NCBI GenBank assembly: GCA_947478395.1
Contig: CANJVR010000001.1
Location: forward strand, 384,001 to 448,000
Direction: 5' to 3'
Origin: Opitutia bacterium
Lineage (GTDB): Bacteria; Verrucomicrobiota; Verrucomicrobiia; Opitutales; Opitutaceae
Length of the DNA: 64,000 nucleotides
This document shows, one piece after another, positions 41,897 through 44,544 of this stretch (positions are counted from its first letter, which is position 1; each line of letters opens with the position of its first letter). Made by a program: the position numbers and the translations under genes. The notes beneath the pieces are model-generated. The model made no database searches. It saw only the letters and a program-made list of their open reading frames with translations, and was not told the origin of the DNA.

Positions 41897-42943
41897 ATGC
41901 CTGCTCCTGATTCCGCTCCCAAAGGCCTGGGCTTTATCGCCTCGTCGCTCGCTGCGCCGGTCTCGCCCGCCGAGGCCGCGCTGCGGCCACTTTCATTCGC
42001 GGACTTCACCGGCCAGCCTAAAACCATCGAACGCCTGCAAGTGATGGTCGGCGCCGCGAAACGCCGCGGAGATGCGCTGAACCACATTCTTTTTTCCGGC
42101 CCGCCGGGTCTCGGCAAAACCACGTTGGCGTTCATCCTCGGGGCCGAACTCGGCAAAAGCGTGCGCGTCACGTCCGGCCCGGTCATCGAGAAAGCCGGCG
42201 ACCTCGCCGGCTTGCTCACGAGCCTGGAGGAGGGCGATCTGCTGTTCATCGATGAAATCCACCGTATTCCGAAAACGGTCGAAGAATATCTCTACTCCGC
42301 GATGGAGGATTTCCGCCTCGATATCATGATCGACCAAGGGCCCAACGCCCGCAGCGTCCGCCTGTCGATTCCCCGTTTCACGCTGGTCGGCGCGACGACG
42401 CGCGCGGGTTTGCTGACGGCGCCGCTGCGCTCGCGGTTCACGTTGCAAACGCGCCTCGATTACTACGATCACGCGACGCTGGAAGGAATTGTGCGCCGGA
42501 GCTGCGGCCTGCTAAACGTGAGCATTGACGCCGGCGGCGCCGCGGAAATCGCCACCCGCGCCCGCGGCACTCCGCGTGTCGCCAACAACCTCATCAACTT
42601 CTGCCGCGACTACGCGCAGGAACGCGCCCAGGGCAAGATCACGAAACCCGTCGCCGCCGCGGCGCTCGAGTTGTTAGAAATCGACGCCGCCGGCCTCGAC
42701 GAAATGGACAAACGCATGCTCCGCGTGATGGCGGAAAATTATCGTGGCGGACCCGTCGGCATGAGCACCATCGCCGTGGCGGTCGGCGAGGAAGCTGAGA
42801 CGCTGGAGGAGGTGCACGAGCCTTTCCTCATTCAGGAAGGTTATCTCCAGCGCACGCCGCAGGGCCGCACGTTGACCGCCAAAGGCTACGCCGCAGTCGG
42901 ACTAAAGGCGGCGGTCGGGAGCGATCAAGGCTCCCTGCTTTAA
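41897..42943 (+). CDS. ruvB: Holliday junction branch migration helicase RuvB
   Basis: LRP, GPPGLGKTT, FIDEIHR, RGTPR, RTPQGR. Confidence 0.98.
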   Translation: MPAPDSAPKGLGFIASSLAAPVSPAEAALRPLSFADFTGQPKTIERLQVMVGAAKRRGDALNHILFSGPPGLGKTTLAFILGAELGKSVRVTSGPVIEKAGDLAGLLTSLEEGDLLFIDEIHRIPKTVEEYLYSAMEDFRLDIMIDQGPNARSVRLSIPRFTLVGATTRAGLLTAPLRSRFTLQTRLDYYDHATLEGIVRRSCGLLNVSIDAGGAAEIATRARGTPRVANNLINFCRDYAQERAQGKITKPVAAAALELLEIDAAGLDEMDKRMLRVMAENYRGGPVGMSTIAVAVGEEAETLEEVHEPFLIQEGYLQRTPQGRTLTAKGYAAVGLKAAVGSDQGSLL

Positions 42944-42950
42944 AGCCTCA

Positions 42951-43248
42951 CCGCGTGAGCCGAAGGGGTCTTCCCCGGCAGCCGTGCGCTGCCCCAGGGG
43001 AGAGCAGCACTCGGCGTTTCCGCCGTGATGAGTCCGGAGGTTCCCACCGCGATTCGCGTGGTTTTTCCGGAGCGAGACTTCCGCATAGACGATTTGGACG
43101 CGCCGGGTTGAAGCCGTATGGCTCGGAGCAAGCTGGACGCAGACTGAGAAGGCCAAGCCCCCGTCTAGCTTCAACTTGCAGCCCGCCGCCTGAGCCCCGT
43201 TGCGTTGCGGCGCAGTAGATTCAGCAGGGGGCACCCAGTGCCACGCGG
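42951..43248 (-). ncRNA. Candidate structured non-coding RNA (~298 nt), family unassigned
   Basis: Terminal helix CCGCGUG/CACGCGG enclosing at least six hairpins; mismatches mostly resolve as G-U on the minus strand; GAAA tetraloop. Confidence 0.55.
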
Positions 43249-43326
43249 ACTGATCGCTCGACGCAAAATTTCTTTTGTCGAATGTGATCGGTAAACTGAA
43301 TAAGCCTCGATCGACTAAAATCTTCC

Positions 43327-44544
43327 ATGCCCACCGCCAGCGCCAATCCGTCCGTCCCCGTCACTACGACGCCCCGCGTCGGCGATCTCGAAATCAAGGA
43401 CGCCCAATTGATTTTCGGCTCGGTGTGGGCCGATTTGGAAGCCGACTTCGGCCGCAAAAATCTGCGCTTCCCGAAGGAAATCATCCTCCTCGGCGGCGCA
43501 CCCGGCGCCGGCAAAGGCACCAATACTGACTTCATCGCGAAAGCACGCGGTCTCACTTGCGGGCCGATCGTGATCAGCGCCTTGCTCGATACGCCCGAAG
43601 CCAAGCGACTGAAGGATGGCGGCAACATGGTCGGCGATCGCGAGGTCATCGGCCTGCTGCTGCGCCGGCTATTGAGCCCGGAATATCGCGACGGCGTCAT
43701 CCTCGATGGCTTTCCCCGCACGAAGGTGCAGGTCGAATGTCTCAAGCTGCTCGTGGATCGGATGCATCAGCTGCGACGGGAATTCTACAGTACGCCGCTC
43801 GGCATTCACTTTCGCCAGCCCACCATCCACATCATGGTGCTCTTCGTGGACGAGAAGACGTCCGTCGGCCGCCAGCTCAAACGCGGTCACGAGATCAAGG
43901 CGCACAATGACGAAGTCCGCCGCACTGGCATCGGCGAATTGCAGGAAGAGCGCGCCACGGACTTCGACCAAGCTCTCGCGCAACGGCGCTACCGGGTGTT
44001 CAAGGAGCAGACTTGGGATGCGCTGCAGGAGCTGAAGGAAATCTTCCATTATCACTTCATCAACGCCCAGGGCGCGTTCGATGAAGTGGAGCAAAACATC
44101 CGCCACGAGCTCGACTACCAGAGCACGCTCGAACTAGACCCGAGGACGGTGGACCGCCTGCGTTCGATCCCCGTTGCGAGCGAAATCATCGTGCACGCGC
44201 GGCAGGAGATGGTGAAGCGGCTGGACGCCTATGAACTAGAACACCCAACGCTTTTTGGGGAGGTGGCGACCTTCATCGCCCAGAAAGTAATGCCCATCGT
44301 GCTGCGCCATGCGATTTCCGGCGTCGCGTTGGTCAATACCGAGGAAACGGTGCTCGAAGACCCGTTGGCTCTGGCGATGCTGATCGATATTTTTTCCGAA
44401 CGAGGCTACCACGCCGTCGTTGATATTCATCGCATCGAGGTGCCACGGAAATTCGACCTCCAGACCGGCGCGATCACTTGCCGCACAAAAAAAGTCTATC
44501 GCGTCCAGATCCGCTTTCACGGCTCGGAAATCCGGCGCGGCTAG
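43327..44544 (+). CDS. Adenylate/NMP kinase family protein with C-terminal extension
   Basis: GGAPGAGKGT P-loop, ILDGFPRT; 405 aa. Confidence 0.85.
   Translation: MPTASANPSVPVTTTPRVGDLEIKDAQLIFGSVWADLEADFGRKNLRFPKEIILLGGAPGAGKGTNTDFIAKARGLTCGPIVISALLDTPEAKRLKDGGNMVGDREVIGLLLRRLLSPEYRDGVILDGFPRTKVQVECLKLLVDRMHQLRREFYSTPLGIHFRQPTIHIMVLFVDEKTSVGRQLKRGHEIKAHNDEVRRTGIGELQEERATDFDQALAQRRYRVFKEQTWDALQELKEIFHYHFINAQGAFDEVEQNIRHELDYQSTLELDPRTVDRLRSIPVASEIIVHARQEMVKRLDAYELEHPTLFGEVATFIAQKVMPIVLRHAISGVALVNTEETVLEDPLALAMLIDIFSERGYHAVVDIHRIEVPRKFDLQTGAITCRTKKVYRVQIRFHGSEIRRG

Follow-up and report, generated by a model that had tools for sequence, protein, structure and literature searches.

A decayed operon front end next to ruvB in an Opitutaceae genome, and a family-wide motif that is likely a stress-related small RNA

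The spacer between ruvB (41897–42943, plus strand) and an adenylate-kinase-like gene (43327–44544, plus strand) in an Opitutaceae genome is almost certainly a relic, namely what is left of the front end of an operon that has been deleted. Quite probably, it consists of a mutated promoter, a broken copy of a ~90-nt RNA motif (43149–43208) that is likely a stress small RNA, and about 49 codons of a lost regulator. To judge from its sequence across relatives, the ~90-nt motif itself is likely an undescribed family of stress-induced small regulatory RNAs. Throughout this text, the window is the whole stretch of 64,000 nucleotides that was analysed, and its host genome is 98.8% complete in 9 contigs.

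On one side of the spacer, ruvB scores above the NCBIfam RuvB cut-off, and its stop codon abuts the truncated regulator stub at a rearrangement junction. On the other side, the adenylate-kinase-like gene (hereafter adk), which encodes 405 aa and serves as the synteny anchor, has a Pfam ADK domain as well as NCBIfam adk matches below cut-off, and is present in 18/18 genus genomes. The ADK domain is limited to residues ~52–260, with no Pfam match in the C-terminal ~140 aa, and the protein is strongly conserved in Opitutaceae (73–90%). A box of the type TTTCTT(T/A/G)(T/A/G)GTCG upstream of adk (43269–43280, plus strand) is kept in 16/16 aligned rows, and we infer that it is likely part of the adk promoter. 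By BLAST, the spacer is single copy in its genome, and seven of the ten non-self loci lie in same-genus genomes upstream of the same adk-like gene; pairwise and multiple alignments show the whole spacer to be collinear, end to end, with that region in the same-genus genomes. The order in same-genus relatives with the flank read (3/17 in full) places adk divergent from a series comprising the promoter, the RNA motif, a response regulator, a histidine kinase, an RpoE-like sigma factor and a downstream gene. In the window's genome, the regulator and the kinase are absent, a separate contig carries the sigma gene, and the stub directly adjoins ruvB. This proximity of ruvB to adk was found in none of 17 same-genus loci (1.5-kb flanks read) and none of 160 further loci (up to 3-kb flanks), that is, 0/177 in all, and since one contig from another study (run X15) covers 42500–43900 across the ruvB join, the join is not a misassembly. 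An earlier note on this DNA had stated that the spacer is not a leader for either present neighbour, and rightly so: its former content was a promoter, an RNA, a leader and the opening codons of an operon since deleted.

The segment at 42948–43105 (minus strand) is, by its homology to an intact coding sequence and its inactivating lesions, a pseudogene stub covering codons 1 to ~49 of a sigma54-dependent response regulator from the NtrC family. With a DNA profile built from the first 210 nt of the gene in relatives, the best match in the whole genome falls at 43103–43002 (E 1e-7), and pairwise and multiple alignments extend this match, collinearly, to ~42948. The lesions comprise a change of the start codon from ATG to CGG, a +1 frameshift near 43066–43068, small insertions and truncation at the ruvB stop; second-codon-position differences number 7–11/33 between stub and relatives, as against 3–7/33 between intact genes. 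In relatives, the intact gene encodes the Pfam domains Response_reg, Sigma54_activat and HTH_8, is divergent from adk in 14/17 genus genomes, and is followed by a histidine kinase and then by an ECF sigma factor that is closest to RpoE, yet below the RpoE cut-off. The window's genome was found to hold neither an intact regulator orthologue (the best paralogue reaches 43% vs 79–100% among relatives' orthologues) nor a kinase orthologue. Independent decay, truncation or frameshift of the regulator was seen in three other genomes (G009, G017 and G004). The stub is like an ordinary bacterial pseudogene in its lost start, frameshift, truncation and lack of an intact copy, but differs in being accompanied by the remains of an RNA gene with promoter. 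Between the stub and that relic lies a former untranslated gap, from the RNA terminator to the regulator start (43106–43148, minus strand), which is poorly conserved (7–13/36 positions identical per relative) and holds a GCUUCAAC arm found in this lineage only.

The decayed RNA copy itself (43149–43208, minus strand) was placed by alignment position and collinearity. It comprises a hairpin 1 relic whose pairing is lost (43208–43178), the core AAGUUGAAGCUAGAC (43177–43163), which is 13/14 identical to the loci L016, L017 and L031, a remnant of hairpin 2, most of which (~22 nt) is deleted between core and tail, and the tail UUGGCCUU (43156–43149), the last two being recognised by alignment to relatives. 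Upstream, at 43218–43242 on the same strand, the alignment reveals a decayed sigmaE-type promoter, with the −35 box changed from GGAAC to GGCAC (43242–43238) and the −10 box from GTC to ATC (43220–43218). With the covariance model, the window copy reaches 13.7–14.2 bits vs 59.6–92.6 for intact copies, the copy of a near-identical strain is equally weak (17 bits), and folding gives z +0.9 vs −4.0 to −5.7 for intact copies. Chance coding matches of the core score 15–20 bits, and as the relic, at 14 bits, does no better, its identification rests on position and collinearity. At 43166, 43181, 43221 and 43151, some strains have the ancestral base of RNA or promoter, and hence the decay is still segregating within the species. 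A second intact copy was sought in the window's genome and not found. It is very probable that the window copy is either not made or non-functional. The earlier proposal of an undescribed noncoding RNA thus holds in one respect, as a covarying ~90-nt motif maps to 43208–43149 on the minus strand, but fails in another, as the copy in this genome is broken.

The intact motif was traced through 178 adk loci; a 13-letter core pattern picked 116 full-length copies, 108 of them unique. Its order on the minus strand is GGAAC-N17-GTC, a variable hairpin, the near-invariant core AGUUGAAGCUGGACCUGG, a GC hairpin with a GNRA cap, CUUG and a U-rich tail. Core positions 0–12 are fixed by the selection pattern, and the unselected positions 13–21 are 92–100% conserved, so that conservation spans ~23 nt of the core region; single-sequence folds give the core a mean unpaired probability of 0.13–0.65, and so do not clearly leave it single-stranded. 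When MAFFT is used to align 54 of the 108 unique copies, 96.9% of cells are paired and 14/17 pairs show two-sided changes, a level that 0/500 shuffles reach and that compares with 33–49% in slid controls, kinship inflating these counts and the margin being wide. Hairpin 2 is an 11-bp GC stem, 99.7% paired, whose loop is GCAA, GCGA, GAAA or GUAA in 80/108 unique copies, and these GNRA variants fix the strand of the motif. In 88/108 copies, the 8 nt that follow the stem include at least four U residues, and hairpin 2 with its U-tail is a predicted intrinsic terminator of the intact copies. Taken together, these features make it very likely that the family motif is a transcribed RNA. The core as a peptide-coding sequence was considered and rejected, since its frame agrees with that of the regulator in some loci only. 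Comparison of intact copies from five loci with Rfam 15 gave no match at E<=1, and in small windows the best match was NrsZ, with 22 bits against a cut-off of 77 and confined to the terminator and what lies downstream of it. Literature searches found no description of the motif, and the main texts of PMC11109978, PMC8632094 and PMC5737381 contain no Opitut- or Verruco- mention, a listing in their supplements being possible; no described regulatory sRNA in Verrucomicrobiota was found in the literature searched either.

The core is present in 18/26 family genomes and 0/274 others, and occurs once per genome in 17 of the 18. Outside the family, the covariance model gave nothing convincing: a single order-level match lacks hairpin 2, the 17-mer core has 13 matches on viral contigs, which are without the hairpins and score 15–20 bits, and GenBank phages contain no core match. 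Extra, diverged copies were seen in genome G019 (L326:5816-5916, L327:5671-5767 and L328:5082-5175) and genome G020 (L334:7094-7192); they score 32–57 bits, and keep the core and second hairpin without a nearby GGAAC/GTC promoter. A serine recombinase and two ParB/RepB genes follow the L327 copy at a distance of ~580 nt, the L334 copy has prophage-like surroundings that include a phage HNH gene, and the L328 copy is near a GIY-YIG nuclease. The idea that the motif marks an integration site was dropped, as of two matches 6 kb apart in G032, one proved to be a copy of the RNA and the other a chance match in coding sequence. Within the genus of the window, the RNA has also been lost independently at L023, L025, L028, L029, L030, L032, L026 and L027, with the promoter mostly kept.

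Intact copies carry, by sequence match, a sigmaE-type promoter. The distance between its GGAAC and GTC boxes is 17 in 97/99 cases, where 15–18 was allowed; the promoter lies within 85 nt upstream in 87/108 copies, and in 16/16 checked loci lacking such a nearby site it was found 96–186 nt upstream. In one subgroup (L067, L078, L081, L109, L147, L149, L156, L159, L171, L188, L210 and L212), the promoter precedes the core by 160–186 nt and falls within a short reading frame that is hydrophobic and, by eye, resembles DUF1328, and the RNA would accordingly be ~100 nt longer or processed there. At L026 and L027, where the RNA, regulator and kinase are all lost, the promoter stands directly before the ECF sigma gene, which suggests autoregulation. 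In the window's genome, the sigma gene is on contig C3, and the promoter motif is absent from the upstream region scanned. The strict promoter pattern is rare genome-wide (1 site each in 2/4 relatives, 0 in the window's genome), and, given this rarity, the linked sigma factor, itself below the RpoE cut-off, is a candidate partner and a regulon hypothetical.

MicA, RybB, MicL and MicV, the sigmaE sRNAs of proteobacteria, are Hfq-associated. The Opitutaceae motif has in common with them (PMC4102768; PMC6694218) the small size and, according to PMC1312014, the sigmaE boxes of Escherichia coli, GGAACTT and GGTCAAAA, with the same spacing. It has no Rfam match to them, and differs in heading an operon that holds the sigma gene. 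A parallel in layout is offered by FoxI and FoxJ of Fusobacterium nucleatum, which PMC11005410 describes as sigmaE-dependent pairing sRNAs of a host that lacks Hfq and ProQ, each having its own sigmaE-type promoter, a putative Rho-independent terminator and a short conserved core. By the same account, FoxJ was initially taken for a 5′ UTR, as the Opitutaceae motif could be. The two systems belong to different phyla, and no likeness in sequence was seen between them; the Fox seeds are C-stretches, in contrast to AGUUGAAGCUGGAC in the Opitutaceae motif, and their induction and targets have been demonstrated (PMC11005410), whereas for the Opitutaceae motif both are hypothetical.

In the mechanism proposed for intact copies, an RpoE-like ECF sigma factor would initiate the RNA ~7 nt past the GTC box, the transcript would end at ~90 nt by means of hairpin 2 and the U-tail, and read-through past this terminator could supply stress genes downstream. 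Target mRNAs would be bound by the near-invariant core that separates the two hairpins, with no need of Hfq, as in FoxI and FoxJ; this pairing mechanism could, in our estimate, equally well hold or fail. Seed duplexes computed at 2649 called gene starts of the window's genome, which has the decayed copy and was the one scanned whole, gave a top value of −23.3 kcal/mol vs −22.3 to −25.3 for eight shuffled seeds, and searches for the core complement in 40 family genomes found no shared target gene. Among the top seed matches, none of them significant, several fall at the starts of signal-peptide or secreted-looking proteins (G000 C8:64647, C2:658731-661547, C3:508555 and C2:211822) and may serve as leads. 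Pairing of the RNA in cis with the regulator start is weak, averaging −10.4 kcal/mol over 74 loci.

Instead of pairing, the motif might bind a protein, as a decoy or scaffold, in which case the core and the hairpin 2 stem would be the predicted binding site rather than a seed. This is a possibility that we regard as rather doubtful. The ~23-nt conservation, including the 92–100% at positions 13–21, exceeds what a plain terminator needs, the extra copies retain core and stem with the 5′ part altered, no mRNA target was found, and Hfq was detected in none of the six host genomes searched, four of which are 100% complete, all of which would fit such a role. However, no partner gene co-travels with the motif in the loci read, and the combination of stress promoter, hairpin, short core and terminator is the layout of pairing sRNAs. 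Csr/Rsm sponges carry GGA motifs in loops, and the motif, with a single GGA located outside any loop, is unlike them.

A third role, that of a cis-acting leader (attenuator or riboswitch) governing read-through into the regulator–kinase–sigma operon, of which the window would hold a relic, appears unlikely. Among the 150 loci evaluable by profile once 26 short ones had been dropped, in which some same-genome duplicates remain, 81 have both RNA and regulator, 26 the RNA alone, 11 the regulator alone and 32 neither. Thus, the motif lies on the same strand upstream of the regulator in 81/107 motif loci, with a terminator-like hairpin between promoter and gene, as a leader should. An attenuator or riboswitch would always be 5′ of a coherent same-strand gene, however, and in the 26 loci without regulator, the next gene encodes a TonB receptor, DUF883, DUF3185 or others; read-through into these is conceivable, and the DUF883, DUF1328 and DUF3185 genes are ones we take to be general-stress genes. 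In five of the 26, the motif directly faces a convergent gene that ends 45–147 nt past the core, at the terminator. The loss of the motif from the 11 regulator-keeping loci, a motif-to-gene distance that ranges from ~70 to more than 1000 nt, the extra copies in unrelated contexts and a consensus fold without conserved anti-terminator pairing also speak against a leader. On this sequence evidence, the motif is independent of the downstream regulator. The pairing, protein-binding and attenuator roles are not mutually exclusive, and a small regulatory RNA is the reading that we retain for the family.

The earlier note had interpreted the 298-nt segment at 42951–43248 as one independent, multi-branched noncoding RNA of ~300 nt. 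Much of what it described can be reproduced: in the minus-strand minimum-free-energy (MFE) structure the ends do pair, CCGCGUG (43248–43242) with CACGCGG (42957–42951), and the stems UCCGGA/UCCGGA (43071–43033), CGGCG-GAAA-CGCCG (43025–43012), 43010–42986 and 42983–42958 are all found. The arms of its 8-bp inverted repeat GUUGAAGC/GCUUCAAC exist as well, but the MFE structure pairs 43179–43172 with 43135–43128 instead. The proposed minus-strand polarity is borne out by z −2.86 on the minus strand vs −0.93 on the plus strand. The segment has no Rfam match at gathering or E-value thresholds, in keeping with the note's suggestion of an undescribed RNA; RNase P, tmRNA, SRP and 6S RNA, which it had set aside, resemble the spacer only in the proposed size range, and have their own copies elsewhere in the genome. 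The interpretation as a single RNA could nevertheless not be sustained, given that half of the segment once coded for protein and that relatives do not keep the fold.

Even so, a new RNA of ~300 nt might have been built in this lineage from the sRNA and the pseudogene debris, transcribed through the lost terminator. We consider this very improbable. In its favour are the minus-strand z score, a 7-bp end helix of probability 0.99, a stub half that folds at z −2.18, beyond the −1.3 to +1.0 of the same region in seven intact genes, and the core as the best-kept segment (13/14). The minus-strand folding signal is, however, barely above chance, as 6/137 stretches of 298 nt, drawn at random from the genome with matched GC, also have z <= −2.86 (noisy values, from 12 shuffles each), and it depends on boundaries: moving the frame by ~25 nt gives z −1.7 and −1.9, and a 51-nt move to the left gives −2.7. 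When the fold is mapped onto 15 relatives, 52% of cells are paired vs 36–46% in slid controls, and of five measures two place it above the shuffled controls (0 and 2 of 500), which is expected because the structure was taken from one row of a set of related sequences. No sister species with 90%–99% adk identity was found in 160 loci, and so conservation of the fold within the lineage was assessed on strains only. Of 11 distinct substitutions from three strains, five are unpaired, four keep their pair as G-U, two break a pair and none is compensatory. Counting for a new RNA, all four strain transitions at paired sites keep the pair as G-U and the window always bears the Watson-Crick allele, a count that is biased since the MFE was fitted to the window allele. 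In addition, strains diverge faster in the spacer than in its flanks (7/298 sites in one strain contig vs at most 5 in ~1100 flanking nt). The old promoter, mutated, lies inside the proposed RNA, and a scan for sigma70 promoters and terminators found none of either. A metagenome scan with the window/L016 consensus pattern gave 0 matches; RNA run X20 contains near-identical contigs over parts of adk and none over the spacer, at low depth in one study and with DNA runs breaking there too. A minus-strand open reading frame at 42902–43234 was rejected as a gene, having no NCBIfam match and merely traversing the stub. The 298-nt fold is likely the incidental folding of GC-rich debris, the minus-strand bias of which would fit the old sense strand. 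That the spacer is instead a MITE or REP cluster can be practically dismissed on copy number, for despite its many short hairpins and an 80-copy REP-like palindrome elsewhere in the genome, the dispersed copies by which the earlier note would have recognised a MITE are missing, no spacer 14-mer occurs more than twice in the genome on both strands, and orthologous sequence accounts for every segment. The palindrome, GGCAGGCAGGGACGCCTGCC, is the commonest 20-mer of genome G000, and is absent from the spacer.

For the interpretation of genomes, these results carry a caution, as a GC-rich pseudogene stub may look like a structured RNA. For the family, they bring to light a motif that is family-wide, covarying, promoter-linked and outside Rfam and the literature searched. 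Tentatively, and as a possibility that we do not favour over its negation, the motif might be the first stress-sigma sRNA of Verrucomicrobiota: one that heads the operon of its own sigma factor, needs no Hfq, relies on a 23-nt core nearly unchanged throughout the family, has been duplicated into mobile DNA (a serine recombinase–ParB/RepB module and a prophage-like region) where it could retune the host's stress response, and whose copy in the window is being lost along with the two-component system in a freshwater lineage with a small genome. If the motif is the RNA arm of a sigmaE-type response, this design would extend to another phylum and would offer a clean system for studying Hfq-free sRNA action, for which the repeated loss of the motif in freshwater members provides natural knock-outs for comparison.
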